Positions 17,334 to 49,872 of a stretch of 64,000 nt of DNA are shown here, piece by piece. Location: the NCBI GenBank assembly GCA_035636595.1, contig DASPYU010000009.1, positions 31,705 through 95,704 on the forward strand, given 5' to 3'. Within the stretch, counting starts at the first letter, position 1; every line of letters begins with the position of its first letter. Position numbers and translations under genes: made by a program. This DNA is from Thermoplasmata archaeon (lineage in GTDB: Archaea > Thermoplasmatota > Thermoplasmata > RBG-16-68-12). The notes beneath the pieces are model-generated. The model did no database searches, had not been told where the DNA came from, and saw only the letters and a program-made list of their open reading frames with translations.

Positions 17334-19391
17334 GTGCGCGACCCGGGACCGGCGCTCGCGACGTTCGTCGTGGCGCTCGTCCTGGCGTCGTCCTCCCCCT
17401 GGGCGGGTGGCGGTGTCGAGACCCTTGGCACTCCCCCTCCTCGGACCGCACCCGCTCTTTTTCCACGGGGGGATGGCGGAGCGAGCCTCCTTCTGACACG
17501 CGTCTACGCGAACTCCGCGCGAGACGACGAGTTCGTCGAAATCGCGAATCTCGGGTCGGAGTCCCGCGACCTCGTGGGATGGTCGCTAACGGATGGCGAG
17601 GCGACCGCTACGTTCCCGCTCGATTCGATCATCCCGGCGGCCGGTCGGCTCTTGGTGGTACGGAACTCGACGAGCTACGCCGAGGACACGCTCGCGATCG
17701 CGGATTTCACGTGGGAGAGCGGCCTCGTTCGTCGGATGGAGGGTGGCATCCTCCGGCTCGCCGACGCGGGCGACGAGGTCCGCCTGCTCGATCAGACCCG
17801 CACCACCGTCGACGCGTACGTGTGGGGGAACTCGGACGACAACGGTCCTGGATGGACCGGCCCTCCCGCGGTAGCCATGGGGCGCGGCGAGATCGCCGTG
17901 CGCACATCGGACGGACTCGGAGGTTGGACCGATACGGATGCCGCCGAGGACTGGGCCGGGGTGCGACATCACCGCCTAGGACAATCGAGTTTCGGACTGT
18001 CCACGTTCGAGATTCGTGGTCGAATCACTCCGGTCCTGTCCCCGGACGCGGGCGATGTGCCGCTGCTTTCGTTCCTCGCCTCCGCGACGCGCTCCCTTGA
18101 TCTCGGCGTCTACACCTTGACAAGTGAGCGGATCGGCGCGGCGCTGGCAAATCTCGCGGAGCGCGGCGTCCACGTTCGAGTCCTCGTGGACGGAGCGCCC
18201 GTCGGCGGCGTCGAGGACGAAGAGAAACGGATCCTCAGCGGACTCGTTCGTGCCGGCGCGGAGGTGAGATGGCTTGCGGGAGGGACGGATGTCGTCAAGA
18301 GATACCGCTACCTGCACGCGAAGTACGCGGTCGCGGACGGCCGCGCGGCCTGGATCGGGTCCGAGAATTTCGGGGCTGCCGGGTTCCCCTCCGGCAATGG
18401 GGATGGCAATCGCGGATGGTCCGCCATCATCGATGACTCCGAGATTGCGCGCGCCCTCGCGGCCGTGTTCGATGCGGACTTCGACTCCCGTCGCCGCGAC
18501 TCGATCCCCGTGCCGCTCACCTCGTTGGACCCGCTTCCGCCACCGCCCGTCGTTTCCCCATGGAGTCCGTCTCTCGATGGGACCGTCCGACCCGCACGCC
18601 TGCTCATCGCCCCCGACAACGCGCTCGATCCCGGTGGCCTCTTGGACGCCATGGCGTCCGCGCAGGACCGCATGTGGATCGAGGCGTTCTACGTCGACGA
18701 GGCGTGGCGAGACGCACCGAACGCGTTGGTCGAGGCGGCGTTCGCGGCGGCGCGCCGCGGCGTCTCCGTGCGGATCGTACTCGATGGGAGCTGGTGGTCG
18801 GTCGGGGAAGGTTCCTCCGGGAATGATCGGATCGTCGAACGCCTCAACGGCCGAGCGCGGAACGAGAGCCTGGACTTGGAGGCTCGGCTTCTGGAACCGC
18901 GAGGCCGCATCGAGCGGCTCCACAACAAGGGCCTCGTCATCGACGGACGCACCGTCCTCGTCTCGAGCATGAACTGGGCCCTCGGGTCCGCCACGGAGAA
19001 TCGGGAGATCGGGATCCTCGTCGAGGACCCGGATCTTGCGGCGTTCTTCGAGGCCGCGTTCGCCGCGGACTGGGACGGACGCCCCACGTCCGGGGTCGAC
19101 GCGTGGCGGCTCGAGGATCCCGCGGTCCTCCTCGGACTGTACGCGTTCGTCGCGGCCGCGTCCGCGATTTCGCTGCGGAAACTGAGAGTCGGGTCCAAAG
19201 GCATAAAGCCCCGCGAGAGGCTGCGAACGCGTGCCTCCCTCGGAGCTCATCTCCGCCGCGGACCTGGAGAAGTTCGGGTACTGCCCGCTGAGCTGGTGGC
19301 TCAGCCGCGGGCTCGCGCCGGAGGAAGGCGCCGAGCTCGCGGAGGGCGAGAAGAAGCACGAGGCCGCCTCCGCGGACCTGAAGGGGATTGA
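17334..19391 (+). CDS. Secreted PLD-superfamily protein: N-terminal lamin-tail domain plus two HKD motifs, C-terminal TM anchor
   Basis: Signal peptide, an LTD-like segment (DEFVEIANLGSESRDLVGWSLTDGE), HKD motif 1 (YLHAKYAVADGRAAWIGSENF), HKD motif 2 (RLHNKGLVIDGRTVLVSSMNW), then TM LLGLYAFVAAASAISL. The ORF runs on 160 nt into the next gene in another frame. Confidence 0.7.
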   Translation: MRDPGPALATFVVALVLASSSPWAGGGVETLGTPPPRTAPALFPRGDGGASLLLTRVYANSARDDEFVEIANLGSESRDLVGWSLTDGEATATFPLDSIIPAAGRLLVVRNSTSYAEDTLAIADFTWESGLVRRMEGGILRLADAGDEVRLLDQTRTTVDAYVWGNSDDNGPGWTGPPAVAMGRGEIAVRTSDGLGGWTDTDAAEDWAGVRHHRLGQSSFGLSTFEIRGRITPVLSPDAGDVPLLSFLASATRSLDLGVYTLTSERIGAALANLAERGVHVRVLVDGAPVGGVEDEEKRILSGLVRAGAEVRWLAGGTDVVKRYRYLHAKYAVADGRAAWIGSENFGAAGFPSGNGDGNRGWSAIIDDSEIARALAAVFDADFDSRRRDSIPVPLTSLDPLPPPPVVSPWSPSLDGTVRPARLLIAPDNALDPGGLLDAMASAQDRMWIEAFYVDEAWRDAPNALVEAAFAAARRGVSVRIVLDGSWWSVGEGSSGNDRIVERLNGRARNESLDLEARLLEPRGRIERLHNKGLVIDGRTVLVSSMNWALGSATENREIGILVEDPDLAAFFEAAFAADWDGRPTSGVDAWRLEDPAVLLGLYAFVAAASAISLRKLRVGSKGIKPRERLRTRASLGAHLRRGPGEVRVLPAELVAQPRARAGGRRRARGGREEARGRLRGPEGD

Positions 19392-30525: not shown

Positions 30526-30717
30526 TTCCAACCGTCCGAGACCCGATTCACGCCGGCAAATCGCTCCATATCGATTCGCGATTTCCCCCGTGATCGCCCA
30601 AGATTTTCGAGGGCTGTCCTAAGATGTGCGGTGAATCTATTTATAGCGTCCGCCGAATCCCTGTCAGGTTGTAGCACGTGCGGGGGTATTGGGGCCCCTC
30701 GCCATGCTGGTGGGGTT

Positions 30718-33351
30718 ATGCCAGGGGAGGAGAAGCACTCGAGTTGGCGGCGCAGTGAACGAAGAGTCGTTGCGGCGATCGTGACCGCCGTCCTCATCTC
30801 GACGGTCTTGCTTTCGGCGTTCCTCGCCGTCGCGTATCCCGCGGCCGCGTCCGCCGCTCGGGGCGTCAACCCCGCCCAGGCATCTCGCACGCTGCGAATC
30901 GGCGTTTCCGGCCTGACCGCCGTAACGTTGAACCCGAACGCGATCACTCTTGTCCTCGAGTTCATCCCCGTGTACAACGTCTACAGCACGCTCGTCACCC
31001 GCGACGCCTCGCTCAGCATTGTCCCGGACCTCGCGTACCGATGGGAACCTCCCTCCGACGGCGTCACGTGGACGTTCCACCTCGTGTCGAACGCGTACTT
31101 CACGGACCCCATGAATCCCGCGGACCGCAGTCATCCGGTCACCGCGGATGACGTGGTCTTCTCCTATTACCTCGTCAAGAACAACACGGGCAGCATCCTG
31201 AATTCCTACACGTCCCAGATCGACCGGATTGAGAAGGTCGATACGTACACCGTGCGCATCGTCACCAAGGCGCCGTTCGCGGCGATGGACTCGACCCTGA
31301 CCGCCGTCCCGATCTTCCCCATGTATCTGTGGCAATCGATCCGGAACCCCGTCACGCAGGAACCGTTCCCGTACCCGGTCGGGTCCGGTGCGATGTACTA
31401 CGATCCGAACAGCGACCTGTCCGCAGTGATCATCCTGCACCGCAACCCGAACTACTTCGGCGACGCGATGTACTGCCAGCTTTCCCGGCCGGAAGAGGTG
31501 CGGTTCATCCTGTACACCTCCTCGGGCACGATGATCGACGAATTCGGGTCCGGGTCGAACAAGCTCGATGCGATCTTCAACATCCCGGCGTCGAGCTTCC
31601 TGAACGCGCCGGCCCTCCAGCAATCGACCGTGAGCCGAATCCAGGTCTCCGGCGGATTCGTTGGCGAAGTCGCGGCGAACGCGATGACGGACACGCTCCG
31701 CGCCCAGTACCAGCAGTTCCACACGGGACACAACAGCCAGATCCTCGCGACGAACCAGGTCGTCCGGCAGGCGGTCGCGATGAGCATCGACCGGGCCGCG
31801 ATCGTCCGGTATGCCTACCAGGGCCTCGCGACGCTCGGCGACAGCTTGGTGCCGTCGAGCAACCCATGGCACTACCCGATCCCGCCGGCGAATCAGTACG
31901 ATTTCGATCCCGCCGCCGCGCGCGCGATGCTGAACGCCGCGGGATGGGCCTACGATTCCGCGGGCAACCCCGCGACCGCGACGACGACCCCGCTCTACAA
32001 AGCGGGCGGCACACAGGGCCTCGTCTTCCGCTTCTACACGCCGGACAACCACCCGGAGTTCGAGCCCGCGGTGGCGAACATCACCGCGTGGTTGGGCCAG
32101 GCGGGCATCCAGACGACCGACTCGCGGGGCAACTACGTCCCCGGATACGAACTCAAGCCCGTGAACCAGATGAACAGCATCTGGAAAGCGCTCGATTACG
32201 ACATCTGGCTGTGGGACTGGGTCTTCAGCCGGGTCTCGGACCCGTCGCTCGACATCCTCGAGGTGCAGACGACCGACGCGATCGGGCCCACGAGCGACAA
32301 CGGATACTCGAACGCGACGTTCGACGCACTGTACAACGAGTCCTTGGTCACCGTCAACCCGTCCGACCGCCGCAACATCACGAACACGATGCAGCAGATG
32401 CTCTACGACTACGCGTCGTACATCATCCCCTACTACGCGGACGACCTGTACGCGGTCACGAGCGACCCCGGACTCGGCAACGGCTGGCAGAACTGGGGCG
32501 ATTGGACGAAGCGTCCCGGCCTCACCGTGGACAGCTCGCTCCCGGCGCTGTACTTCAACCTGTATCCCGCGGACAACCCGCCACCGGTGATCAGCGCGTT
32601 CCCCGCCGTCGACTTCGTCTCGGGGGCCCCGGCCTCCGTGAGCGTCGTGGCGTCCGATCCGAACGACGTGACGCTGTCGTACACCTGGGACTTCGGGGAC
32701 GGGACCGCTCCGGAGACGACGTCCACCGCCAGCACGACGCACACGTACGCGAGCCCGGGCACGTACGCGCTCAAGGTGCGCGTGACGGACACGGAATGGC
32801 CGACGTGCGCGACCTCTACCGCGACGATCAGTCCCGGCACGGCGAACGGACCTCCGAGTGCGACCTTGGGCTTCCAGTTCCCCGCGTCGGGCCACGGCTG
32901 GGAGCACCAAGCGGTGAACTTCAGCGTGACCGTCTCCGACCCGGAGGGCGACCCGCTCTACATCACCTGGGCGTTCGGGGACCAGGCGACCGCGACGAAC
33001 TACGTCACCTCGACGTCGTCGCCGACGACCGTCACGCAGAGCCACGTGTACGCGTCGCCCGGAAACTACAGCTTCGCCGTCAACGTCACGGACAACCAAA
33101 CGGGCGCCGGGCACATCCAGTCGAAGCCCGCGAACATCCCGATCTGGACGACTCCGACAGGTGGCGGTGGAGGCGGCGGTCCAGGCCCCGGCGTGAATCC
33201 GCTCATCAACTACGGCGTGCCCCTCGGCATCGTGGCCGTCATCCTGATCGCGGCGGCGGTCGTCCTGATCCGTCGGAGCCGGGCGCGAACGAAGGAGGAA
33301 CGGGAGGAGGAACCTCCGAGGCAGCCACCGCCTCCGCCCCCGCCATCCTGA
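30718..33351 (+). CDS. ABC transporter substrate-binding protein (family 5, Opp/Dpp type) fused to two PKD domains and a C-terminal TM anchor
   Basis: Internal ATG (MPGEEK.., signal anchor). SBP_bac_5-like region, PKD motifs (SYTWDFGDG, ITWAFGD), and C-terminal TM (LGIVAVILIAAAVVLI) followed by RRSRARTKEEREEEPPRQPPPPPPPS. Confidence 0.8.
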   Translation: MPGEEKHSSWRRSERRVVAAIVTAVLISTVLLSAFLAVAYPAAASAARGVNPAQASRTLRIGVSGLTAVTLNPNAITLVLEFIPVYNVYSTLVTRDASLSIVPDLAYRWEPPSDGVTWTFHLVSNAYFTDPMNPADRSHPVTADDVVFSYYLVKNNTGSILNSYTSQIDRIEKVDTYTVRIVTKAPFAAMDSTLTAVPIFPMYLWQSIRNPVTQEPFPYPVGSGAMYYDPNSDLSAVIILHRNPNYFGDAMYCQLSRPEEVRFILYTSSGTMIDEFGSGSNKLDAIFNIPASSFLNAPALQQSTVSRIQVSGGFVGEVAANAMTDTLRAQYQQFHTGHNSQILATNQVVRQAVAMSIDRAAIVRYAYQGLATLGDSLVPSSNPWHYPIPPANQYDFDPAAARAMLNAAGWAYDSAGNPATATTTPLYKAGGTQGLVFRFYTPDNHPEFEPAVANITAWLGQAGIQTTDSRGNYVPGYELKPVNQMNSIWKALDYDIWLWDWVFSRVSDPSLDILEVQTTDAIGPTSDNGYSNATFDALYNESLVTVNPSDRRNITNTMQQMLYDYASYIIPYYADDLYAVTSDPGLGNGWQNWGDWTKRPGLTVDSSLPALYFNLYPADNPPPVISAFPAVDFVSGAPASVSVVASDPNDVTLSYTWDFGDGTAPETTSTASTTHTYASPGTYALKVRVTDTEWPTCATSTATISPGTANGPPSATLGFQFPASGHGWEHQAVNFSVTVSDPEGDPLYITWAFGDQATATNYVTSTSSPTTVTQSHVYASPGNYSFAVNVTDNQTGAGHIQSKPANIPIWTTPTGGGGGGGPGPGVNPLINYGVPLGIVAVILIAAAVVLIRRSRARTKEEREEEPPRQPPPPPPPS

Positions 33352-33435
33352 TTACCCCGGAGCGGCTGAGCATTGCTCGAGTCGGAGAGGTGAGAAAGCA
33401 CGAGCAGCCTCCTCAGGGTCGTCGCTCGGCGCGTC

Positions 33436-34407
33436 GTGAATGCCGCCATCACGATGTTCGGGATCATCTGCCTCAACTACGTCCTCATCCGGCTGATGCC
33501 CGGGAGCGCGGACCTCGCGATCGTGCCCCGTGACCCGAAGTACGCGGGCTTCCGCGAGTACCAGATCGCGCTGTTCGGACTCGACAAGACCCCGCTCGAG
33601 CAGTTCGTCATCTACCTGCAGAAGCTCTTCACCCTCGACTGGGGCGTATCGTACTTCTACAAGCGGCCCGTGGTCCAGATCCTCGCGGTCGACCTGTCGT
33701 GGACCCTCCTGCTCGTGGGCACCGCGACCGTCTTCACGATCTTGATCGGCATGGCGATGGGGGCCTACGCCGCGGTGCGGAGAGGCAAGCCGTTCGACTA
33801 CCTCTCGACGGGATTCGCGATCTTCTTCTACGGGATGCCCATCTTCTGGCTCGGGCTCGTCCTCCAGGCGGCCTTCCGGAAGAACTCGCCCGTCACGGAC
33901 TACTTCTCGTGGTGGCCCTCGCTGCCGGTCCAAGGATACTACGACGACAACTTGGTCCCATGGCGGTGGGACTGGATCCACATCGGCGACGCGACGGTCC
34001 ACCTCATCCTCCCCGCGGCGACGCTCGCCCTCGGGACGCTCGCGGGGATCTCGCTCGTCATGAAGAGCTCCCTCATCGACGTGATGACGGAGGACTTCGT
34101 CACGACGGCGCGGGCGAAAGGGCTGAATGAGCGGGTCATCCTGCGGCGGCACATCTTCCCGAACGGGCTCCCGCCGATGGTCTCCCTCATCGCGCTCGAC
34201 ATCGCGTTCATCCTCGGCGGCGCGTACCAGGTCGAGTACGTCTTCAACTACAAGGGGATCGGCTACCGGACGATCGAGGCGATCGAGAACCTCGACTACC
34301 CGCTGCTTCAATTCATCATCGTGATTGGAGGCGCCGCCGTCGTGCTCGCGAACCTCGTCTCCGATTTTGTCCTGCTCCTGCTCGACCCGCGAATCAAGAT
34401 TACCTGA
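33436..34407 (+). CDS. ABC transporter permease (DppB/OppB type)
   Basis: GTG start. BPD_transp_1 signature region (..LIDVMTEDFVTTARAKGL..) and six TM helices. Confidence 0.85.
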   Translation: MNAAITMFGIICLNYVLIRLMPGSADLAIVPRDPKYAGFREYQIALFGLDKTPLEQFVIYLQKLFTLDWGVSYFYKRPVVQILAVDLSWTLLLVGTATVFTILIGMAMGAYAAVRRGKPFDYLSTGFAIFFYGMPIFWLGLVLQAAFRKNSPVTDYFSWWPSLPVQGYYDDNLVPWRWDWIHIGDATVHLILPAATLALGTLAGISLVMKSSLIDVMTEDFVTTARAKGLNERVILRRHIFPNGLPPMVSLIALDIAFILGGAYQVEYVFNYKGIGYRTIEAIENLDYPLLQFIIVIGGAAVVLANLVSDFVLLLLDPRIKIT

Positions 34408-34415
34408 GGTGATGG

Positions 34416-35333
34416 ATGGCCGAAGTCGTCGAAGGCATCCGGATCGTCTCCCCGTTCCGCGCGCGCGCGACGGTCATGTACCGCCGCCTCCACGACGTCT
34501 GGAGCCAGATCGCGCACAACCGCTCCGCCATGCTGGGACTCGCCATCCTCGTGTTCTTCGTCGTCCTCGCGATCGCGGCCCCTTGGCTCGCGCCCTACGG
34601 GCCGTTGCAGGCGGTCCCCGACGCGCTGCCCCTGACGCGGGCGACGTCGGCGCATCCGCTCGGCGTGAATCAACTCGGATACGACATCTTCTCCCAAGTC
34701 ATCTGGGGCACGCGCGTCTCGCTCATCGTCGGCATCCTCTCCGCGCTCGTCGCGAGCGTCATCGGCACCGCGGTCGGCCTCATCTCGGGCTTCGTCGGCG
34801 GCTGGCTCGACGAGGTCATCATGCGCTTCAACGACGTCGTCCTCTCGATCCCGTGGCTCGTCCTGATGATCGTCATCGCCGCGCGCATCGGGAACCTCGA
34901 CCTGTGGGGCATCATCTTCGTGATCGGCTTCACGGGATGGTCCATCACGGCGCGCGTCATCCGAGGCCAGGTCCTCAGCCTCAAAGAGCGCATGTTCGTC
35001 GAACGCGGCAAGATGATCGGCTCGTCGAACGCGCACATCGTAATCCGGCACATTTTCCCGAACGCCTTCCCGATCGTCTTCGCGAACACGATCCTGACGG
35101 TCGCGGTGTCGATCATCTCGGAGAGCGTCCTCGCGTTCCTCAACCTGTCCGTCCGGAACACGGTGAGCTGGGGCCGGGTCATCGCGGAGGCGTTCAAGTA
35201 CAACGCGATCACGATCGGGATGCCAGGATGGATCATCGTCCCCGGCCTCTGCCTCGTCTTCCTCGTCTTCGGCTTCTACCTCTTCGGGTACGCGCTCGAT
35301 GAGATCCTGAATCCGCGCCTTCGGAGGCGCTAG
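34416..35333 (+). CDS. ABC transporter permease (DppC/OppC type)
   Basis: Typical OppC architecture with EAA-like loop (..ITARVIRGQVLSLKERMFVERGKMIG..). Confidence 0.85.
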   Translation: MAEVVEGIRIVSPFRARATVMYRRLHDVWSQIAHNRSAMLGLAILVFFVVLAIAAPWLAPYGPLQAVPDALPLTRATSAHPLGVNQLGYDIFSQVIWGTRVSLIVGILSALVASVIGTAVGLISGFVGGWLDEVIMRFNDVVLSIPWLVLMIVIAARIGNLDLWGIIFVIGFTGWSITARVIRGQVLSLKERMFVERGKMIGSSNAHIVIRHIFPNAFPIVFANTILTVAVSIISESVLAFLNLSVRNTVSWGRVIAEAFKYNAITIGMPGWIIVPGLCLVFLVFGFYLFGYALDEILNPRLRRR

Positions 35334-35350
35334 AAACGACCCTCCTTGAG

Positions 35351-36334
35351 GTGCGCGACCTCAGCGTCGAATTCGACACGCGCGCCGGGAAAGTGCACGC
35401 GGTCGAGGGCGCCTCGTTCGACGTGGCGGAAGGGGAGGCGCTCGGCCTCGCGGGCGAGTCGGGTTGTGGGAAGACGACGACGGCCCTCTCCCTGATGCGC
35501 CTCCTCCCGGCGAACGGCCACATCGTCGAAGGGACCGTGCGGCTGGACGGCCGCAACCTGGTCCGCTCCTCCGAGGCGGCGTTGCAGAAAATCCGGTGGA
35601 AGAAAATCTCGATCATCTTCCAGGGAGCGATGAATTCCCTGAACCCGGTCCAGCGGATCGGGAAGCAGATCGCCGAACCGATCATCCTGCATGAAGGGGC
35701 GACCAAGGAAGCGGCGACCGCTCGCGCCGGACAGCTCTTGGAGCTCGTCGGGATTTCCCGGGAGCGGCTCAGCGACTATCCCCACGAATTCTCCGGAGGG
35801 ATGCGGCAGCGGGTGATGATCGCGATGGCCCTCGCGTGCAACCCGAACCTCGTGATCGCGGACGAACCCGTGACGGCCCTCGACGTGATGATCCAGGCGC
35901 AGATCCTGGAGCTCCTCGAGCGGCTTCGCCGGGAGTTGGGCCTCTCCATGATCCTCATCTCCCACGATCTCTCCGTCCTTGCGGAGACGTGCGACCGGGT
36001 CGCGATCATGTACGCGGGGAAGATCGTCGAGACGGGCCCGGTCGTCGACGTGTTCTCGGACCCCAAGCATCCGTACACGCAGGGGCTCGTCGCCGCGTTC
36101 CCGGACGTCCGCGGGCCCCGGATCATGCCGGAGGCGATCCCCGGCGATGTGCCGAGTCTCATTTCCCCGCCGTCGGGCTGCGTGTTCCATCCGCGGTGCA
36201 AGTTCTCCTTCGACCGATGCACGACCGCCGAGCCCGCCCTCTCGGAACTGAGCCCCGGACGTCGGGCGGCCTGCTTCCTGTTTCCCGAAGTCACGGAGGT
36301 GCCGGCACGGCCAGCTCGCGCAGCCGAGACATGA
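35351..36334 (+). CDS. ABC transporter ATP-binding protein (DppD/OppD type)
   Basis: Walker A GESGCGKTT, signature FSGGMRQRV, Walker B LVIADEPVTALD, and a C-terminal Opp-type extension with CxxC. Confidence 0.85.
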   Translation: MRDLSVEFDTRAGKVHAVEGASFDVAEGEALGLAGESGCGKTTTALSLMRLLPANGHIVEGTVRLDGRNLVRSSEAALQKIRWKKISIIFQGAMNSLNPVQRIGKQIAEPIILHEGATKEAATARAGQLLELVGISRERLSDYPHEFSGGMRQRVMIAMALACNPNLVIADEPVTALDVMIQAQILELLERLRRELGLSMILISHDLSVLAETCDRVAIMYAGKIVETGPVVDVFSDPKHPYTQGLVAAFPDVRGPRIMPEAIPGDVPSLISPPSGCVFHPRCKFSFDRCTTAEPALSELSPGRRAACFLFPEVTEVPARPARAAET

Positions 36335-38133
36335 TCCGCGTTCGGGACCTCCGGGTCTGGTACCCGCTCCGAAAAGGGCTGTTCGGTGAACTGCTCGGCC
36401 GGCAACCCGAGTGGGTGCGCGCCGTCGACGAAATCTCGTTCGACGTGCGCACGGGCGAGGTCCTGTGCCTCGTCGGCGAGAGCGGATGCGGGAAGACCTC
36501 TACGGGCAAGGCGATCTTGCAACTCGCTGACGCGACGGGCGGGGACGTCTTCATCGAGATCCCCGACGCGGAGTTTGACCGGTTCCGCGCCGCCTCCAAG
36601 AAGAAAGACGAACCGGAATCCGCGAAGCTCGTGGACGAAACCCGCCGCAAGTACTCCGTCTCCTGGAAGGAAAAGTTCCGGTGGACCCGATTCGACATCA
36701 TGAGCCTCGCGACGATGATCGAGGCCGCGGTCCTCCTGGCATTCGTGGTCCCGGCCGCGATCCTCGGACTCTTCTCGGACCCGTTCACGAACTCGTGGAA
36801 CACGCTGGGCTTTGCCGTCGCGGTCGGTGCCATCGTGGGTGCGGTCGCGAGTTTGCCGCCGGCCCGCGCATGGCGTCGCCTCCCCATCGTCGTCGCGGTC
36901 CTGTCGATCGTCCTCGTGGTCCTCGGCGGCATCCCGACGTTCTACTTCCGGGACCTGGTGGCTCCGGGTACCGGCGGGTTCGGATCGACCGCGCTATCGA
37001 TGGCGTGGGAGCGCGATCTGTTCGGGCTCTTGATTGCCACCGCCTTCGCACCGATCGTCGCGGCGGCGATGTCGGCTTTGATCGTCGACGTGAGGCAACG
37101 GACCGGAGGCCTCGGCGGAATGCGCATGCGCGGAATGCGCCGGCGCCTTCAAATGATCTTCCAGGATCCGTACGAGTCCCTCAATCCGAAGCAGTCGGTA
37201 TACGAGATCGTCTCCGAGCCGCTCGTCGTGAACCGGATCACGCGGAATCCCGAGGAAATCACCGAGCTGGTCCAGAGCGCGCTCCGCGACGCCGGACTGC
37301 GTCCCCCGGAGGAGTTCATGTTCCGCTTCCCGCACGAACTCAGCGGCGGACAGCGGCAACGCGTCTCCATCGCAGCGGCCCTCGTCCTGCAACCGGACTT
37401 CATCGTCGCGGACGAGCCGGTGTCGATGCTGGACGTCTCCATCCGGACGGGGATCCTGCAGCTCATGATGGACCTGCGGAAATCCCGCGGCCTCACGTAC
37501 CTGTTCATCACCCACGACCTCTCGCTCGCCTGGGTGATCGCGGACCGCATCGCCGTCATGTACTTGGGCAAAATCGTGGAACTCGGCACCGCGGAACAGG
37601 TGATCGGCCAGCCGAAGCACCCGTACACCCAAGCTCTCATCTCCGTGGTTCCGAGCCCGGATCCGCGCAAGCGGGTCCAGCGGATGATCCTGAAAGGCGA
37701 ACGGCCCGATCCCGTCAACATTCCGACGGGTTGCCGCTTCCATCCAAGGTGCCCAATGGCGTTCGAGCCGTGCGGTTGGAACTCCGAGGAGGTCGTCGCC
37801 GAGCTCACGGCCCTGCAAGCCGACGGCCGATTACCCGGCGTCGCCGCGATCTCCGTCCAGGGCTTGCACAACGTCACGATGACGGTGGCTCCGGGCGCCT
37901 CGGCGGAAAGCACGGTCGCGGCGGTCCGGGCCGCGGTCGCGGCGGGACGCAACGCACGGCTTGGACTGAAAGGCGTCTCGAGGGTTGAGGCGAAGGGCGG
38001 GTCCATCGAGATCTCTTTGAACGCCTGGTTCGTGCCCGAACTCGTCGAGCTCGCGCCGGAGAATTCCGTGGCTTGCCATCTCATCACGCCGCCGTCGACG
38101 GAGGCCGCGGCCGTCACGGCCGGAGCCGACTGA
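36331..38133 (+). CDS. ABC transporter ATP-binding protein (OppF/DppF type) with a ~220-aa four-TM insertion in the nucleotide-binding domain
   Basis: ATG overlaps the previous stop (ATGA). Walker A GESGCGKTST, then an inserted segment with 4 hydrophobic helices (LATMIEAAVLLAFVVPAAILGLF, FAVAVGAIVGAVASL, LPIVVAVLSIVLVVLGGIP, LLIATAFAPIVAAAMSALIV). After it come the Q-loop IFQDPYESLNP, signature LSGGQRQRV, Walker B IVADEPVSMLD and an Opp C-terminal domain. Confidence 0.75.
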   Translation: MIRVRDLRVWYPLRKGLFGELLGRQPEWVRAVDEISFDVRTGEVLCLVGESGCGKTSTGKAILQLADATGGDVFIEIPDAEFDRFRAASKKKDEPESAKLVDETRRKYSVSWKEKFRWTRFDIMSLATMIEAAVLLAFVVPAAILGLFSDPFTNSWNTLGFAVAVGAIVGAVASLPPARAWRRLPIVVAVLSIVLVVLGGIPTFYFRDLVAPGTGGFGSTALSMAWERDLFGLLIATAFAPIVAAAMSALIVDVRQRTGGLGGMRMRGMRRRLQMIFQDPYESLNPKQSVYEIVSEPLVVNRITRNPEEITELVQSALRDAGLRPPEEFMFRFPHELSGGQRQRVSIAAALVLQPDFIVADEPVSMLDVSIRTGILQLMMDLRKSRGLTYLFITHDLSLAWVIADRIAVMYLGKIVELGTAEQVIGQPKHPYTQALISVVPSPDPRKRVQRMILKGERPDPVNIPTGCRFHPRCPMAFEPCGWNSEEVVAELTALQADGRLPGVAAISVQGLHNVTMTVAPGASAESTVAAVRAAVAAGRNARLGLKGVSRVEAKGGSIEISLNAWFVPELVELAPENSVACHLITPPSTEAAAVTAGAD

Positions 38134-39250
38134 GGCGCTCGAACAGCCGATGGAACCGCGAGACGTGCGATCCGGGCACAAGCCGCGATGGGACCGGCGT
38201 CAGAGCGGGCCATGGCGCGACGGTCGTGCGCCATCGAGCGAGGATGTACGCACACGGGACGAACGTGGCGGCCCCGAGCAGGAGGCCGAGGTTCAGGATG
38301 CCCGTCGTCGTGGTGAGGAGCCCCGCGAGCGGCTCGATGATCACGAGACCGAGCGTGTACGCGAACGCGCCCATCGAGAGGACCGTCGCCCGCTGCCCCG
38401 GCTCGAGCCTCCGATTCAGGAACGCGGTCGTGAGCGCGGGCTGCAGGCTCCACACGACGTAAATCGGAATCTGGAAGAGGATCGCTCCCGGATACTGACC
38501 GACGCCGAACATCGCGAAGAACGAAGCCGATGCGAGGAGGACGAGCAACGCGATCGTCCCGAACTCCCCGAGGAAGCGGGAGATCTCGCCCGCGAAGCCG
38601 GACCATAACGCCGCGACCAAGAGGAACGCGGAGATCGAGACCGCGATCTCGGGATCGGAGAGGCCGAGGAACCGCAAGTAGAGGGGACGGAAGATCGACA
38701 TCGCATACAGGGTGATCCCGAGGAACACTCCGATGCCGATGAGCAGCGCGACGCCTTCCCGCCGACGCACGACGCGCAGTCCCTGGACCAACTGTTGCGC
38801 GTACGTGGGCTCCGTGATTCGCTCGACCGACGGTTCGAGGAAGGTCCACGCGACGCCGACCGCCACGAGGTTCCACGCGGCTCCGACGAACAGGGTCACG
38901 CGGAGATCGTGGACGACTTGAACGAGGGCGCCGCCCGCGAACGCACCCGCGGAGTTCGCGAGGAGTTGGATCATCGTGTTGCGGCCGATGTACCGCGGGA
39001 ACTCCGACTCGTGTCCCGCCTCGAGGAGCGTCTCGTACAGGTACGCGGACGTCCCGATCGAGAAAGCGGCACCGAGCGACCAGACCACGTTGGCGCCGAC
39101 GTATCCGACGAACGTCGTCCCAAGGCCGTAGCCGAGGATCCCGGCGGACCGGATCACCTCGCTCACGATAATCGTCTTCTTGCGGCCGACGCGATCCGCC
39201 ATGACGCCAACCGGGAGCTGGAAGACGAGGAGTCCGACCCAGAACGCCAC
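38114..39250 (-). CDS. MFS transporter, N-terminus uncertain
   Basis: 11 TM helices in 378 aa with the MFS motif A region (GVMADRVGRKK). An in-frame TM1-like sequence lies upstream of the GTG start without a canonical start codon. Confidence 0.7.
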   Translation of the reverse strand: MAFWVGLLVFQLPVGVMADRVGRKKTIIVSEVIRSAGILGYGLGTTFVGYVGANVVWSLGAAFSIGTSAYLYETLLEAGHESEFPRYIGRNTMIQLLANSAGAFAGGALVQVVHDLRVTLFVGAAWNLVAVGVAWTFLEPSVERITEPTYAQQLVQGLRVVRRREGVALLIGIGVFLGITLYAMSIFRPLYLRFLGLSDPEIAVSISAFLLVAALWSGFAGEISRFLGEFGTIALLVLLASASFFAMFGVGQYPGAILFQIPIYVVWSLQPALTTAFLNRRLEPGQRATVLSMGAFAYTLGLVIIEPLAGLLTTTTGILNLGLLLGAATFVPCAYILARWRTTVAPWPALTPVPSRLVPGSHVSRFHRLFERLSRLRP

Positions 39251-39549
39251 GTCGACCAGGGTGAAGTCGAAGTCGGACGCGAGGTTGCCGCGAATCCAGA
39301 GTGCCCAGAACGGAATCCAGAGCGCGAAGGCGGACGCCGCTTGGTACGCGTAGAAACGACGGACGCGTCGGCGGAGCTCGGGCAGAATGTATCACCGCGT
39401 CTGAAACGCACGATTCTGAACCTTCTATTTAGACGATGACGCTCGCGCACATCCGCGATGCGTTCCGCGAAACGCTAACAAAATCCGAGGCCCCATCCCA
39501 TGCGAACGGACCCATCCAGGGAATCTATAAGACCCCTTGGGCAATCGTT

Positions 39550-39623
39550 ATGGTGGTGTTGGGTTTCACTAACTCGGATACGCGTTGGACGAGATCTTCA
39601 ATCCGCGGCTGAGGAAGCGGTGA
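39550..39623 (+). pseudogene. Remnant of the 3' end of an OppC-type permease gene, marking a duplication boundary
   Basis: It translates to ..LGYALDEIFNPRLRKR*, matching the C-terminus of the permease at 34416..35333 (..FGYALDEILNPRLRRR*). Homology breaks just upstream, and there is no upstream ORF body. Confidence 0.45.
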
Positions 39624-39624
39624 C

Positions 39625-40605
39625 ATGCCCCTGCTGACCGTCAAGGGGCTGAAGACGTACTTCGAAACGCAGGAGGGCGACGTGAAGGCCGTGGACGGCG
39701 TCGACTTCACGCTCGGCGAGGGGGAGAGCCTCGGCCTCGCGGGCGAGAGCGGCTGCGGCAAGACGACCGCCGCCTTGTCGATCATGCGGCTCCTCCCTTC
39801 GAACGGCCGGATCGTCGACGGCACGATCGACTACATGGGCTACGACCTCGCGCGCATCCGGGAGAACCAGCTCCGCGGCATCCGATGGAAGCACATCTCG
39901 ATCATCTTCCAGGGCGCGATGAACGCGCTGAACCCGGTGAAGCGGATCGGCGACCAGATCGCGGAGCCGATCATCCTCCACGACAAGGTGGACAAGGAGG
40001 CCGCCATGAAACGCGTCGGGGAGCTCCTCGAACTCGTCGGAATCTCCCGCGAGCGGGGGAGCGAGTACCCGCACGAGTTCTCCGGCGGGATGCGCCAGCG
40101 CGTCATGATCGCGATGGCCCTGGCTTGCAACCCGCGCATCGTGATCGCGGACGAGCCGGTGACCGCACTGGATGTCATGATTCAGGCGCAGATCCTGGAA
40201 CTCCTCGAGCGACTGAAACGCGAACTGGACCTCTCGATGATCCTCATTTCCCACGACCTCTCCGTCATGGCGGAGACGTGCGACTCGATGGCGATCATGT
40301 ACGCGGGGAAGATCGTCGAGACGGGGAGCGTGCGGGACGTGTTCAAGAACGCGAAGCATCCGTACACGAAGGATCTCATCGGCGCGTTCCCGGACATCGA
40401 GGGACCTCAGACGCTGCCGGCGTACATCCCCGGCCTGCTGCCGAGCCTGATCCATCCGCCGCTCGGATGCCGCTTCCATCCGCGATGTAAGTACGCATGG
40501 CAGCTGTGCATCGACCAGGAGCCGCCCCTCGATCCGGTGGGCGAAGGACACCTCGCCGCGTGCCACCTGAATACGACGACGCCGCCCGCGAAGGGAGGCG
40601 CGTGA
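39625..40605 (+). CDS. ABC transporter ATP-binding protein (DppD/OppD type), paralogue of 35351..36334
   Basis: About 70% amino-acid identity to the first DppD-like ATPase, with the same motifs. Confidence 0.85.
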   Translation: MPLLTVKGLKTYFETQEGDVKAVDGVDFTLGEGESLGLAGESGCGKTTAALSIMRLLPSNGRIVDGTIDYMGYDLARIRENQLRGIRWKHISIIFQGAMNALNPVKRIGDQIAEPIILHDKVDKEAAMKRVGELLELVGISRERGSEYPHEFSGGMRQRVMIAMALACNPRIVIADEPVTALDVMIQAQILELLERLKRELDLSMILISHDLSVMAETCDSMAIMYAGKIVETGSVRDVFKNAKHPYTKDLIGAFPDIEGPQTLPAYIPGLLPSLIHPPLGCRFHPRCKYAWQLCIDQEPPLDPVGEGHLAACHLNTTTPPAKGGA

Positions 40606-40606
40606 C

Positions 40607-42349
40607 ATGGCGCGCGAACCGTACCTCGTCCTGCGGAACTTTCGCGTCTGGTTCGAGAAGCGACGCGGCTTCTTCGAGGCCCTCCGCAAGGCCGAGCCCG
40701 AATACGTGCGCGCGGTCGACGGCGTCGATCTCGACGTTGGGCGAGGCGAGGTGTTCTGCCTCGTCGGGGAGAGCGGCTGCGGCAAGACGACGACGGGCAA
40801 GGGGATCCTGAAGCTCGTCGAGCCGACCGGTGGCGACGTGTTCGTCGGCGTGCCGCCGGCCACGCTCTCGCGGTATGAGGCCGCCAACGCGGGCGGAGAC
40901 GAACGCACGCTCGAGGATATCCGCCAGCGGTACTCGCTCTCTTGGAAGGAGCACCGCCCGTGGTCGATCCCGGATCTGCTGATCCTCGCCGTCGTCATCG
41001 TGGGCGCCGCCGTCCTCGCGACGATCCTGCCCGCACTCGTCGCCGCCTCGTTCTTCCACATGCCCTTCACCAACGGCGGGAGCGTCGTCGCGGAGGCGAT
41101 CGTCGCGGGGCTCCTCCTCGCGTTCTTCGGAAGCCTGCCACCGACGCGACCCACGCCGCGCGTCGCGGCGGTCCTCGGGCTGGTCAGTCTCGTCGTCTTC
41201 AACGTCGGGGCGTTCGTCAGCCTCGTGTTCTCGGGCTACCTGGATTCCGGCGCGGTCTACGGGGCGACGTACTGGGGCGTCGGGGCGATCTCGATGCTCG
41301 GCGGGTCGCTGTTCGCGTTCATCACCGCCACCGTGACGGCTCGGATCATCATCCGCATGCGTCTGCACGAAGAGGGACTCGAGGGCGTGAAGATCCGGAG
41401 CCTCCGAAGGAAGCTACAGATCATTTTCCAGGATCCGTACGAATCCCTGAACCCGAAGCACTCCGTGTACGACATCGTCTCGGAGCCGCTCATCGTGAAT
41501 CGGGTCAGCCGCAACCGCGCCGAGACGGAGGCGCGGGTCGAGCAGGCCCTCTACGATGCGGGCCTCCGGCCACCGCGAGACTTCCTGTTCCGGTTCCCGC
41601 ACGAACTCAGCGGCGGACAGCGGCAGCGCGTTTCGATCGCCGGGGCCCTCGTCCTCGATCCGGAATTCCTCGTCGCCGACGAGCCGGTCTCCATGCTCGA
41701 CGTGTCGATCCGCACGGAGATCATCGAGTTGCTGCTCGAGCTCCGCGAGAAGAAGGGACTCACGTACCTGTTCATCACGCACGACCTCTCCCTCGCCTGG
41801 GTCCTCGCCGACCGGATCGGGGTCATGTATCTGGGGAAGATCGTCGAGCAAGGCCCGACGCGCGAGCTGATCAAGAATCCGCGGCATCCGTACACGAAGG
41901 CGCTTGTCTCCGTCGTGCCGGTCCCGGACCCGGACCGCCGGCGCGAGCGGATCATCCTGAAGGGTGAGCGGCCGGATCCCTCGGCCATCCCGGCCGGGTG
42001 CCGGTTCCATCCCCGATGCCCGGTCGCCTTCGAGCGATGCGGGTGGACCGCGGAGGAGGTCGTCGCGGACCTCAAAGGCCTCGTCGCGGGACAGCCGACG
42101 GAGAGCCTGTTCGCCGGCGCGAGACCGGACGGCCCGCTCGCGTTCGTCTTGCCCGGTGCCCCGACCGGCGTCGAGTCGACCCTCCGGGATCTCGTCGCGC
42201 ATCGAGCCGAGGAGATCCGCGCCCTCAAGGCGATCACCACGATCGAGCGGTCGGATGGCGGCGTTCGCGTCTCGTTGCACGACTTCACCGAGCCAGACCT
42301 GAAGTCGATCACGGCGGACACCCAGGTGTCGTGCCACCTATTCGCCTGA
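40607..42349 (+). CDS. ABC transporter ATP-binding protein (OppF/DppF type) with a four-TM insertion, paralogue of 36331..38133
   Basis: Same architecture: Walker A, ~200-aa insertion with 4 TM helices (LLILAVVIVGAAVLATILPALV, VVAEAIVAGLLLAFFGSL, VAAVLGLVSLVVFNVGAFVSLVF, GVGAISMLGGSLFAFITATV), then IFQDPYESLNP, LSGGQRQRV and LVADEPVSMLD. Confidence 0.75.
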   Translation: MAREPYLVLRNFRVWFEKRRGFFEALRKAEPEYVRAVDGVDLDVGRGEVFCLVGESGCGKTTTGKGILKLVEPTGGDVFVGVPPATLSRYEAANAGGDERTLEDIRQRYSLSWKEHRPWSIPDLLILAVVIVGAAVLATILPALVAASFFHMPFTNGGSVVAEAIVAGLLLAFFGSLPPTRPTPRVAAVLGLVSLVVFNVGAFVSLVFSGYLDSGAVYGATYWGVGAISMLGGSLFAFITATVTARIIIRMRLHEEGLEGVKIRSLRRKLQIIFQDPYESLNPKHSVYDIVSEPLIVNRVSRNRAETEARVEQALYDAGLRPPRDFLFRFPHELSGGQRQRVSIAGALVLDPEFLVADEPVSMLDVSIRTEIIELLLELREKKGLTYLFITHDLSLAWVLADRIGVMYLGKIVEQGPTRELIKNPRHPYTKALVSVVPVPDPDRRRERIILKGERPDPSAIPAGCRFHPRCPVAFERCGWTAEEVVADLKGLVAGQPTESLFAGARPDGPLAFVLPGAPTGVESTLRDLVAHRAEEIRALKAITTIERSDGGVRVSLHDFTEPDLKSITADTQVSCHLFA

Positions 42350-42456
42350 GGTCGGATGCGGCCCCGCCCCGGCGAGCTGACGCGGGACCAACCCGCGTGA
42401 GCCGTGTCGCATAAAGGCTTACAAGGCAACCCGTTCTTCCGGGCCTTGGAGAAGCC

Positions 42457-43287
42457 ATGGAGAAGCTCGTCATCACGATCGCGCCGACGGGCTCGGTCCC
42501 GACGAAGAAGGACACGCCGCACGTGCCCGTGACGCCGGACGAGATCGCCGAGACCGCCTATCGATGCGAGCAGGAAGGCGCGTCGATCATCCACGTCCAT
42601 TGTCGCGACGAGGTCGAGCGGCCCACCTCGAAGTTCGAGATCTTCAAGGAGACCGTCGACAAGATCCGCAAGCGCACGAAACTCATCGTGATGACGTCGA
42701 CGAGCGGGATCGCGGCCGCGACCGACGCGGATCGGGCGGCGCCGCTGAAGACGAAACCGGAGATGGGCAGCCTCACGACGGGCTCGCTGAACTTCGCAGG
42801 CCGCAAGCCCTCCGTCGTCTACGTGAACACGATCAAGACGGTGCAGTTCCTCGCGAAGACGATGCTCGACTCGGGCATCAAACCGGAGATCGAGGCGTTC
42901 GACGTCGGCTTCATCCAGCAGGGGAACCGACTCGTCGAGGCGGGGCTCGTCAAGGAGCCCGCGCACTTCCAGCTCGTCATGGGCGTGGACGGCGGCATCC
43001 CCGCGACGCCGGACAACCTCATGCACATGCGGAATCAGCTCCCGCCCACCGCGACGTACGTCGTGGCGGGGATGTCGCGGATGCAGCTGCCCATGACGAC
43101 GATGGCCATCGTGCTCGGCGGCCACGTCCGCGTCGGATTGGAGGACAACCTCTACCTGAAGAAGGGCGTGCTGGCGCGGAACGAAGAGCTGGTCGCCCGG
43201 GCGCGGCACCTCGCCGAAGACCTGCAGCGGGAAGTCGCCAGGCCGGACGAAGCGCGCACAATCATGGGGCTCGCCCCGCGTGCGTGA
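42457..43287 (+). CDS. kce: Beta-keto acid cleavage enzyme (BKACE/DUF849; 3-keto-5-aminohexanoate cleavage enzyme Kce-like)
   Basis: 276 aa: MEKLVITIAPTG.., HVH..RD, and TIM-barrel BKACE similarity over the full length. Confidence 0.8.
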   Translation: MEKLVITIAPTGSVPTKKDTPHVPVTPDEIAETAYRCEQEGASIIHVHCRDEVERPTSKFEIFKETVDKIRKRTKLIVMTSTSGIAAATDADRAAPLKTKPEMGSLTTGSLNFAGRKPSVVYVNTIKTVQFLAKTMLDSGIKPEIEAFDVGFIQQGNRLVEAGLVKEPAHFQLVMGVDGGIPATPDNLMHMRNQLPPTATYVVAGMSRMQLPMTTMAIVLGGHVRVGLEDNLYLKKGVLARNEELVARARHLAEDLQREVARPDEARTIMGLAPRA

Positions 43288-49305: not shown

Positions 49306-49872
49306 TTGGAGCTAACGGGCGTTCTCAAGGCCAAGATCTGCATGATCGGCGAGGCCGCCGTCGGCAAGACTTCGCTGATCCGGCGGTACGTCGAGGACGC
49401 GTTCGAGGATCGGTACATCTCGACGCTCGGAAGCAAGGTCAGCCTCAAACGGATCTGGCTCACGCCGAAGAGCGATCCGGGCAAGCAACTCGAGGTCCAG
49501 CTTTCGATCTGGGACCTCATCGGAGAGCGTTCGTACCTGGAGTCGCTTCACCAGGAATACCTGCGCGGCTCGCAAGGCATCATCGCCGTGTGCGATGTGA
49601 CTCGCTACTCCTCGTTCGAGGCGCTGGATCAATGGATCCCGGCGGCCCTTCGCATATCGGGCGAAGTACCCATCGCGATCATCGTCAACAAGACGGACCT
49701 GAAAGACCAGGTCATGGTCCTCTACGACGAGAACGAGCCGCAGCAGAAGGCGGAGAAGTATGGCGGCTTCGCGGCGTGGACAAGCGCGAAGTCGGGTGAG
49801 AACGTGAATCCCGTCTTCGGCCGTCTTGTCCTCGGAATCGTGAGGCGGATCGCGACCGCTGACGCGGATTAG
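49306..49872 (+). CDS. Small Ras-superfamily GTPase (Rab/Ras-like)
   Basis: TTG start. G1 GEAAVGKTS, switch-I Thr (YISTLG), G3 WDLIGE (DxxG with Glu where Ras has Gln61), G4 NKTD, G5 SAK. Confidence 0.7.
   Translation: MELTGVLKAKICMIGEAAVGKTSLIRRYVEDAFEDRYISTLGSKVSLKRIWLTPKSDPGKQLEVQLSIWDLIGERSYLESLHQEYLRGSQGIIAVCDVTRYSSFEALDQWIPAALRISGEVPIAIIVNKTDLKDQVMVLYDENEPQQKAEKYGGFAAWTSAKSGENVNPVFGRLVLGIVRRIATADAD

Follow-up and report, generated by a model that had tools for sequence, protein, structure and literature searches.

The adjacent ATPase genes oppD2 and oppF2 are, with high probability, what a deletion has left of a full second Opp operon, and they probably persist as a transcribed, functional orphan pair. 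The window (the whole 64-kb stretch of DNA analysed here) retains a short 3' remnant of oppC2 directly upstream of oppD2. This remnant is orthologous to oppC2 of relatives in which the ancestral layout is intact, and both a promoter-like box and the native junction between the oppC2 stop and the oppD2 start have been kept (Table 1). The event itself is ordinary gene loss, noteworthy only because two ATPase genes have remained intact.

We propose the following course of events. The ancestor would have had the order SBP2-oppB2-oppC2-oppD2-oppF2 followed by a Peptidase_S58 gene, beside an MFS gene. In this Thermoplasmata-like soil archaeon lineage, one deletion, possibly at a short G(G/C)AATC microhomology, would have removed SBP2 through most of oppC2; it would have begun ~10 nt past the promoter box of operon 2 and spared the last 83 nt of oppC2. 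A second deletion would have taken out the S58 gene. The operon-2 promoter would still drive oppD2-oppF2, the oppC2 remnant serving as a ~65-70-nt leader, and the two gene products would form an orphan heterodimeric ATPase pair energising Opp-type permeases encoded elsewhere, the nearest candidate being B1C1.

Table 1 Features of operon 1, locus 2 and the sequence between them (window coordinates).
Feature	Position	Strand	Description or basis
Operon 1, complete Opp-type	30631..38133	+	Pfam matches, ORFs
SBP1	30631-33351	+	SBP_bac_5, two PKD domains, C-terminal anchor
oppB1	33436-34407	+	operon 1
oppC1	34416-35333	+	operon 1
oppD1	35351-36334	+	operon 1
oppF1	36331-38133	+	operon 1
MFS_1 transporter gene	38114..39391	-	Pfam MFS_1 2e-20; between operon 1 and locus 2
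Box A, CCTTCTATTTAGACGATG	39421..39438	-	AT-rich, MFS side of spacer; alignment
Box B, GGGAATCTATAAGAC	39519..39533	+	purine-rich and TATA-like; spacer alignment
Deletion junction, ...TATAAGAC-CCCTTGGGCAATC-GTTATGG...	39534..39548	+	alignment of spacers and oppC2 ends
oppC2 3' remnant	39541..39623	+	~8% of gene; blastn, translations
oppD2	39625..40605	+	intact Opp/Dpp-type ABC ATPase, 326 aa; ABC_tran and oligo_HPY
oppF2	40607..42349	+	intact Opp/Dpp-type ABC ATPase, 580 aa; Pfam
Peptidase_S58 gene 5' remnant, ATGCGGCCCCGCCCCGGCGAGCT...	42356..42380	+	comparison with S58 start of relatives

A frame-broken oppC2 end lies upstream of oppD2

Translated in the frame of position 39501, the sequence before oppD2 reads ...GVGFH-stop-LGYALDEIFNPRLRKR-stop, and the C-terminal end of the window's own OppC1 is ...FGFYLFGYALDEILNPRLRRR-stop. 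The initial annotation had pointed to this oppC-type 3' end, and the similarity is real and beyond chance. A tblastn search of the whole window with OppC1 matched 39561-39620 (75% over 20 aa, E=9e-5), and a blastn query from the Thermoplasmata relative L172 (related loci are given L numbers throughout), which extends from the MFS-SBP2 spacer through the end of oppC2, matched 39541-39624 (90.6% over 85 nt, E=8.6e-27). The remnant is thus slightly longer, at ~83 nt, than the ~70 bp first given. Its DNA identity is 92% (77/84 nt) to oppC2 of L172, 83% to L011 and 79% to L091, as against 66% to the window's own oppC1. In both L172 and the window this significantly similar segment lies directly upstream of oppD2, as in a deletion scar.

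The coding capacity of the remnant has been destroyed: a 1-nt deletion between 39569 and 39570 breaks the frame, TAA follows in frame at 39570-39572, and the original frame survives in no more than the final 16 codons. Upstream of the 1-nt deletion, the other frame encodes AIVMVVLGFT, a stretch identical in OppC2 of L172 and L011. The original TGA (39621-39623) is followed by one base and then the oppD2 ATG at 39625, so the native junction is kept, and its layout does resemble that of operon 1, as annotated. Apart from the 1-nt deletion and an adjacent TTA>TAA change, the differences from oppC2 of L172 and L011 are nearly all synonymous, which indicates that oppC2 was coding until recently. 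Neither an Rfam family nor an unusual RNA fold was found in the remnant and leader.

Relatives carry a complete operon 2 at the same place

A complete SBP2-B2-C2-D2-F2 operon occupies the same syntenic place in at least six relatives (L007, L008, L011, L091, L172 and L177). It consists of a canonical SBP_bac_5 gene and two BPD_transp_1 genes, then D and F, and is followed by peptidase S58. Locus 2 of the window is not such a complete importer operon: tblastn with SBP2, B2 and C2 matched only operon 1 and the remnant within the window, which agrees with the earlier statement that the locus has no binding protein or permeases of its own. Since the remnant is closest to the orthologous oppC2 and relatives have the full operon 2, we regard the truncated state as a deletion derivative.

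The same MFS gene flanks the full operon 2 in all four relatives with upstream sequence (L007, L008, L011, L172), and it is found at the same syntenic place in L007, L008, L009, L011, L090, L172, L173 and L179. It is an ancestral neighbour between both operons, whether operon 2 is full or truncated in the relatives. The annotation had placed it correctly between the two loci, but it was not caught between the halves of a duplication. Its start codon, usually GTG in relatives, is CTG in the window.

Operon 1, which carries its own D1F1, is an old paralogue of operon 2. Amino-acid identities between the two are 68% for D, 50% for F, 44-48% for B, 41-47% for C and 26% for SBP; the ~70% identity originally assigned to both ATPase pairs therefore fits D1/D2 and not F1/F2, while the view of D2/F2 as old paralogues of D1/F1 stands. 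The annotation had explained locus 2 as a later-diverged copy of oppD1, oppF1 and the tail of oppC1, the 3' half of operon 1, and had called for a nucleotide alignment of both loci. This alignment was obtained: 35284-36556 is collinear with 39574-40847 at 71%, starting inside the oppC2 remnant, and this, the matching junction layout and the D and F identities would all suit a duplication. We nevertheless consider that origin very improbable. The remnant resembles orthologous oppC2 far more than oppC1, a complete operon 2 stands at the same site in relatives, and F2 orthologues in other genomes are 56-82% identical to F2, compared with 50% for the in-genome F1. Both the remnant and F2 are thus nearer to genes elsewhere than to the neighbouring oppC1 and F1, which is not the pattern of a partial tandem duplicate. 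In addition, the B, C and SBP paralogues in relatives are at 26-48% identity, so the old paralogue is the whole operon and not its 3' half alone.

Two deletion junctions can be read from the relatives

Only 233 nt separate the MFS gene from oppD2, including the 83-nt oppC2 remnant. On the MFS side, box A is kept in 8 of 8 aligned intergenic regions, and the L172 spacer matches 39405-39441 by blastn (89% over 37 nt, E=3.7e-6); box A is a putative TATA-type promoter element of the MFS gene. Box B has counterparts upstream of SBP2 in L172 (GGGGAAGCTATAAGAC), L011 (GGGAATCTATAAAT), and L007 and L008 (GGGAAACTATTAAT). Its position and conservation suggest a putative operon-2 promoter, which in the window now lies ~90 nt upstream of oppD2. 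A second-frame reading of this region, QGIYKTPWAIVMVVLGFT (39518-39571), was first taken as a longer oppC2 remnant and was rejected: in the intergenic alignment its 5' part, GGGAATCTATAAGAC, is the box upstream of SBP2, and the sequence is oppC2-derived only from 39541 on.

The deletion junction lies ~10 nt after box B, and D2F2 are therefore probably still served by the operon-2 promoter. The motif G(G/C)AATC occurs ~14 nt after box B and also in oppC2 of intact relatives; because it is present at both sites, the deletion may have arisen through a short microhomology. In intact relatives the two junction sites are 4939-5005 nt apart (4186 nt in L011), from which we estimate a deletion of ~4.9-5.0 kb, and the scarcely diverged remnant suggests that it is recent. 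On the other side of the ATPase pair, the S58 remnant begins at the same distance from the F2 stop, and with the same initial codons, as the S58 gene in L007 (ATGCGTCCCCGCCCCCGCGATCT), L011, L172 and L173, and tblastn found no S58 gene in the window. On this comparison the fragment marks a second deletion of ~1 kb.

The source is a metagenome-assembled genome, and a related short contig, L174, has odd internal gaps, which could raise the suspicion that the truncation is a chimeric join or a collapsed contig. However, five further independent assemblies, derived from different samples and through different pipelines (ENA, NCBI, JGI), contain the identical 261-nt junction region, and the junction shows evolved features, namely the 1-nt deletion and substitutions, in place of a clean join. 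We therefore see practically no chance that the locus is an assembly artefact.

A separate clade has lost the same genes

SBP2-B2-C2 have also been lost in L009, L090, L173, L178 and L179, which form a monophyletic clade (bootstrap 99) with a junction unlike that of the window. In L178 the MFS gene is gone as well, and D2F2 stand directly behind Opp1 ABCDF. A single ancient deletion common to the window and the L009-type loci, with SBP2-B2-C2 regained by recombination in some lineages, would account for the similar spacing of box B from the oppD2 start codon (~90 nt in the window, ~80 nt in L009, L090 and L173), and for the closeness of the remnant to oppC2 of L172, which is sister to the L009 group and has the full operon; the poorly resolved D2 tree leaves room for it. 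We give this history little credence. The junctions are unalignable: the window has a near-pristine oppC2 end, whereas the ~80-nt leader of L009, L090 and L173 showed no similarity to oppC2 or to the SBP2 leader beyond that of shuffles. The F2 tree joins L172, which has the full operon, to the L009-type clade and leaves the window outside (92% bootstrap), and regain would need more events.

Our preferred reading is accordingly one of separate deletions, in which SBP2-B2-C2 disappeared on two occasions and S58 on several, with D2F2 spared each time. These event counts rest on F2 and the junction sequences. As the remnant is closest to L172 oppC2, yet the F2 tree sets the window outside the L172 clade, the operon may be a mosaic, and the gene trees are to be read with care. 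F2 scans of genome and metagenome contigs gave mainly distant Opp ATPases among the matches listed, the useful ones being L010, L011, L090 and L091. The sequences of the nearest other lineage (L170, L171, L175 and L176) are cut inside D2, and L174 is the same strain as the window, with internal gaps, and so does not help to date the deletion.

The ATPase genes are intact and probably functional

D2 and F2 both have the nucleotide-binding-domain elements Walker A, signature, Walker B and H-loop, visible in their alignments as GESGCGKT, FSGGMRQR/LSGGQRQR, ADEP and SHD/THD. ABC_tran (PF00005) was matched at 4.7e-25 in D2 and 4.7e-24 in F2, and oligo_HPY (PF08352), the C-terminal domain peculiar to peptide/nickel ATPases, at 1.1e-16 and 7.1e-22, respectively. 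Orthologues in full and truncated loci are 82-93% identical in amino acids to D2 of the window, and at least 90% in closer lineages. F2 has a C-terminal extension and a hydrophobic insertion of ~170 aa with four predicted membrane segments (mapped against 8j5q_D and by hydropathy), located past the Walker A region and ahead of the Q-loop. A suggestion that this insertion is widespread in Chloroflexota and elsewhere was withdrawn; the long matches behind it probably span a D gene together with the F gene next to it.

The dN/dS ratio is 0.03-0.10 for D2 and 0.16-0.27 for F2. In the members of the truncated clade tested (L009, L090 and L173), the values are 0.03-0.08 and 0.16-0.22 over dS 0.45-0.8, the same as in full-operon lineages (0.07 and 0.19). 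On the window branch, dN is 0.048-0.074 for F2, compared with 0.085-0.097 in the full-operon L007, and 0.022-0.028 for D2, with no excess. The pair thus lacks permease genes in locus 2 and is still under purifying selection in truncated relatives, which suggests that orphan D2F2 are probably functional.

The same deletion could instead have left oppD2-oppF2 as non-functional leftovers in early decay that serve no transporter. Since the window lineage seems to have undergone its deletion recently, the intact genes could simply not have had time to decay. Their neighbours are eroding (the S58 deletion and the GTG to CTG change at the MFS start), operon 1 has ATPases of its own, and the strain variant L174 (95% to F2) has lost 70 nt of D2, with a frameshift, and 84 nt (28 aa) of F2 in frame, gaps that may reflect either genuine decay in some of the population or a fault of the assembly. 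We hold such decay to be unlikely, if a good deal less so than the other alternatives discussed above, as both reading frames are intact without excess dN in the window, an independent clade with the same loss keeps D2F2 under strong purifying selection, and every loss of the surrounding genes has spared them.

If D2F2 are functional, as we favour, they may power other permeases. One tentative possibility, which we consider less likely than not, is that in soil Thermoplasmata an Opp-family D/F heterodimer is a shared energiser: the other operon-2 genes and S58 would be lost again and again in separate lineages, while selection would always keep D2F2 because they power other Opp-type permeases. 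The candidates would be B1C1 of operon 1; in L178, D2F2 lie directly after Opp1 ABCDF. No permease operon without ATPases was found within the 64-kb window or the flanks of relatives. More speculatively, the four-segment membrane insertion of OppF might let D2F2 sit alone in the membrane and dock to different permease pairs.

Comparison with known systems

At the level of annotation, these data trace an orphan ATPase pair to gene loss and not to partial duplication, with the ancestral state and both deletion junctions readable from relatives. The modest wider point is that the membrane and binding parts of an importer were lost twice independently while both ATPase genes remained under selection, which suggests that ATPase sharing may extend to the Opp/Dpp family and to archaea. 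To our knowledge, such sharing has hardly been examined in either. Our literature search returned nothing on orphan OppDF pairs, and multitask ATPases of sugar importers were the only useful match.

Opp/Dpp (PepT family) importers, such as M. tuberculosis OppABCD (8j5q) and E. coli DppBCDF/OppBCDF (8z1v, 8z21), share with D2 and F2 the ABC_tran and oligo_HPY domains and the adjacent order of D before F, and F2 matches 8j5q_D at E=9e-103. Unlike these systems, locus 2 of the window has no binding protein or permease genes beyond the oppC remnant, and the insertion in F2 sets it apart from the solved homologues. The locus also resembles decaying operons in which pieces of genes persist: where relatives have an intact orthologue in synteny, it has a short 3' fragment with a broken frame, an S58 5' remnant lies on the other side, and the junction shows possible microhomology. 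Unlike plain operon decay, the deletion has brought the distal genes up to the promoter-like box of their own operon, and may thereby have yielded a shortened, still expressed operon and not dead DNA; it offers an example of distal operon genes placed directly behind the operon's own putative promoter.

The multitask ABC importer ATPases MsmX of Bacillus subtilis and MsiK of Streptomyces are encoded apart from permease genes (PMC7658222). The D2F2 genes likewise stand apart from permease genes, are presumed to energise others, and are under purifying selection though unlinked. The known ATPases of this kind act as homodimers of a single protein in bacterial sugar (CUT1-type) importers, whereas D2F2 would be a D/F heterodimer of the peptide family in an archaeon, with sharing proposed for putative client permeases and an orphan state that goes back to a traceable deletion.

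The second ATPase pair is the remainder of a second Opp operon

The window (65% G+C) contains a complete Opp-type operon (operon 1) and, beyond an MFS gene, a second pair of ATPase genes, oppD2-oppF2 (locus 2), which is not a complete Opp operon. The closest named relatives of the sequence are Thermoplasmata archaeon MAGs, and GCA_009772795.1 WNGH01000038.1 is the same contig. Locus 2 is also present in five other assemblies; since its junction region is identical in all five, it is not an artefact. A small GTPase gene (Arf/Ras/Roc family matches) lies ~7 kb downstream, at ~49342-49872 (18736-19266 in the matching sequence L001).

Features of the two Opp loci and their surroundings (window coordinates)
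Feature	Position	Strand	Remark
SBP_bac_5 gene (SBP1)	30631-33351		operon 1; two PKD domains
oppB1	33436-34407		operon 1
oppC1	34416-35333		operon 1
oppD1	35351-36334		operon 1
oppF1	36331-38133		operon 1
MFS_1 gene	38114-39391	minus	
Spacer, MFS gene to oppD2			233 nt
Box A	39421-39438		MFS side of spacer
Box B	39519-39533		GGGAATCTATAAGAC; upstream of SBP2 in full loci
oppC2 remnant	39541-39623		83 nt; blastn/tblastn matches and translation
oppD2	39625-40605		
oppF2	40607-42349		
Peptidase_S58 (DmpA-like) 5' remnant	42356-42380		ATGCGGCCCCGCCCCGGCGAGCT; first ~23 nt, at normal offset after the F2 stop
BKACE gene	42457-43287		
Class-III aminotransferase gene		minus	

The initial annotation described an OppC C-terminal peptide before oppD2, with a permease stop, a few nucleotides and an ATPase start. 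Both are present: the translation ends ...H*LGYALDEIFNPRLRKR*, and a single base separates its TGA (39621-39623) from the oppD2 ATG. The remnant is longer than the ~70 bp proposed. In a search of the whole window, it matches the C-terminus of OppC1 (75% over 20 aa, E=9e-5), as had been noted, but the match of 39541-39624 to the oppC2 of a relative is much stronger (90.6% over 85 nt, E=8.6e-27). We compared the 85 nt that precede the oppD2 ATG with the corresponding oppC ends: identity is 92% to oppC2 of L172, a matching locus in another genome, and 83%, 79%, 70% and 65% to oppC2 of the loci L011, L091, L008 and L007, versus 66% to the window's own oppC1. The frame of the remnant is disrupted by the loss of 1 nt between 39569 and 39570; ahead of this point the other frame gives AIVMVVLGFT, a perfect match to OppC2 of L172 and L011. 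Unusual low-GC codons (GTT, TTG, GGT) are common to the remnant and L172 oppC2 (L172 8934-9017).

The genomic context of a series of F2 orthologues revealed a complete operon 2 at the same place in six loci (L007, L008, L011, L091, L172 and L177), in the order MFS (minus strand), SBP2, oppB2, oppC2, oppD2, oppF2 and Peptidase_S58, with BKACE adjacent or a few genes on. The MFS flank is seen in L007, L008, L011 and L172, the sequences of L091 and L177 beginning inside SBP2, and operon 1 lies upstream of the MFS gene in L007, L011 and L172, exactly as in the window. The many F2 orthologues (56-82% identity) are all nearer to F2 than its in-genome paralogue F1. Between the two operons, identity ranges from 26% (SBP) through 41-47% (C), 44-48% (B) and 50% (F) to 68% (D), indicating old whole-operon paralogues. 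The suggested old paralogy is thus upheld, and the ~70% identity assigned to the paralogue pairs fits D1/D2 but not F1/F2. Locus 2 had been explained as a duplicate of the 3' half of operon 1, which the closer match of the remnant to L172 oppC2 than to oppC1 and the six full relatives contradict. The second locus is real and its ATPase pair an orphan, as first interpreted; its origin is loss, not partial duplication, and it is a deletion derivative of the second operon.

Deletion junctions, number and age

When the spacer between MFS gene and SBP2 in full loci was aligned with that between MFS gene and oppD2 in truncated loci, two AT-rich boxes, A and B, proved to be conserved. Judged by position and conservation, box B resembles an archaeal purine-rich/TATA element. 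The deletion brought the region just past this promoter-like box together with the final 83 nt of oppC2, which start ~8 nt after the box, and kept the native oppC2-stop/oppD2-start junction GAGGAAGCGGTGACATG. L172 and L011 have G(G/A)GAATC ~14 nt past box B and, at the matching site within oppC2, GCAATC; the join in the window has the sequence GGGCAATC, which would be compatible with deletion at a short microhomology. In L007, L008 and L172 the two junction sites are separated by 4939-5005 nt, in L011 by 4186 nt. Transcription would start ~22-27 nt past the TATA-like box, giving a leader of ~65-70 nt that consists of the oppC2 remnant, and D2F2 would be translated as before the deletion. The remnant/leader matches no Rfam family and shows no unusual structure.

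SBP2-B2-C2 are also missing from five other loci (L009, L090, L173, L178 and L179), which have their own spacer type, with ~80 nt behind a variant of box B (AAAACGTTAAGG). No alignment of this spacer with the window remnant is possible, and its similarity to oppC2 or the SBP2 leader does not exceed that of shuffled sequences. In an F2 neighbour-joining tree, the five form one clade (bootstrap 99) with full-operon L172 as its sister (92), and the window pairs with L010 (99) outside both. The different spacers and tree positions suggest that SBP2-B2-C2 were deleted independently at least twice. The best match of the remnant is L172 oppC2, yet the F2 tree sets the window outside the L172 clade; given this conflict and a poorly resolved D2 tree, lineages may have exchanged parts of operon 2 by recombination. 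In L178 (ERZ28573601 scaffold_376), where the MFS gene has been deleted too, oppD2-oppF2 directly follow operon 1 on the same strand after 102 nt (8917-9018), so that seven genes, two ATPase pairs among them, form one array; SBP1 of L178 is seemingly split in two pieces.

Barring the 1-nt deletion and a neighbouring TTA>TAA, nearly every change that separates the remnant from L172/L011 oppC2 is synonymous for OppC2. As coding-region dS between these lineages is ~0.7-0.8, most divergence accrued while oppC2 was still a gene, so the window lineage underwent the deletion comparatively recently.

The S58 remnant runs into the BKACE upstream region, indicating that a second deletion took S58. The gene is intact in L007, L008, L011, L091, L172, L173 and L177, with L173 keeping it and its sisters L090 and L179 missing it, and no two of the loss junctions in the window, L010, L009 and L090 are alike. 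S58 losses are more frequent than SBP2-B2-C2 losses. A conserved box AA(A/C)G(C)TTAC, similar to the variant box B of L009-type loci, precedes BKACE (AAAGGCTTACAAGG in the window, 42413-42426; AACGCTTACCTACC in L007 and L010) and may be a local form of the promoter TATA element.

Are the orphan ATPases functional?

D2 and F2 are intact in the window, with all domains present. Within the older truncated clade (L009, L090, L173), dN/dS is 0.033-0.077 for D2 and 0.157-0.223 for F2 over a dS of 0.45-0.82, indistinguishable from the full-operon pair L007-L008 (0.069 and 0.185). In three-taxon branch estimates, the window branch has no excess of non-synonymous change (F2, 0.048-0.074 versus 0.085-0.097 for L007; D2, 0.022-0.028). 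ATPase-contacting permease regions are the best conserved between B1/B2 and C1/C2 (57-67% versus 47-48% overall); such conservation is expected for the family and is only weakly supportive. Taken together with the L178 layout, these observations lead us to favour a functional orphan pair working with permeases encoded elsewhere: with moderate confidence, a D2F2 heterodimer would energise other Opp-type permease pairs. Because the window lineage was truncated too recently, intact D2F2 genes fall short of proof in its own population. A short contig of the same strain (L174, GCA_009787515.1 WNGR01308292.1; window 39509-42628, 99-100% identity) lacks ~70 nt of oppD2 including Walker B, shifting the frame, and 84 nt (28 aa) of oppF2 in frame; these gaps may be assembly errors, or real population variants in which the orphan pair is decaying.

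Both OppF1 and OppF2 carry a ~170-aa hydrophobic insertion with four predicted membrane segments (OppF2 residues ~90-261, between the Walker A region and Q-loop; between positions 430 and 432 of M. tuberculosis Rv1281c, 8j5q_D) and a C-terminal extension of ~100 aa. This architecture is common to ~120 database clusters (573-609 aa), the named ones from Thermoplasmata or Methanobacteriota. We are not aware of any role reported for such a membrane insertion in Opp ATPases. The MFS gene starts GTG TC(C/G) GAG CTG in L172, L011 and L009. The window reads CTG CCC GAG CTC (39380-39391, minus strand), with a TGA four codons upstream. The first membrane helix has no ATG, GTG or TTG ahead of it, and the next in-frame start follows only beyond it (39250); translation may begin at a rare start codon, or the gene may be truncated N-terminally. 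L007 likewise lacks that GTG.

Comparison with known systems

Deletion scars with gene remnants are a well-known kind of genome change. Our literature search returned no report of orphan OppDF pairs arising by such deletion, and we consider the novelty low to modest. D2 and F2 both belong to the Opp/Dpp ATPase family and are ordinary representatives of it. For their putative sharing, the closest functional analogy is with MsmX and MsiK, the shared 'multitask' ATPases of sugar importers, which are single homodimeric bacterial proteins (PMC7658222).
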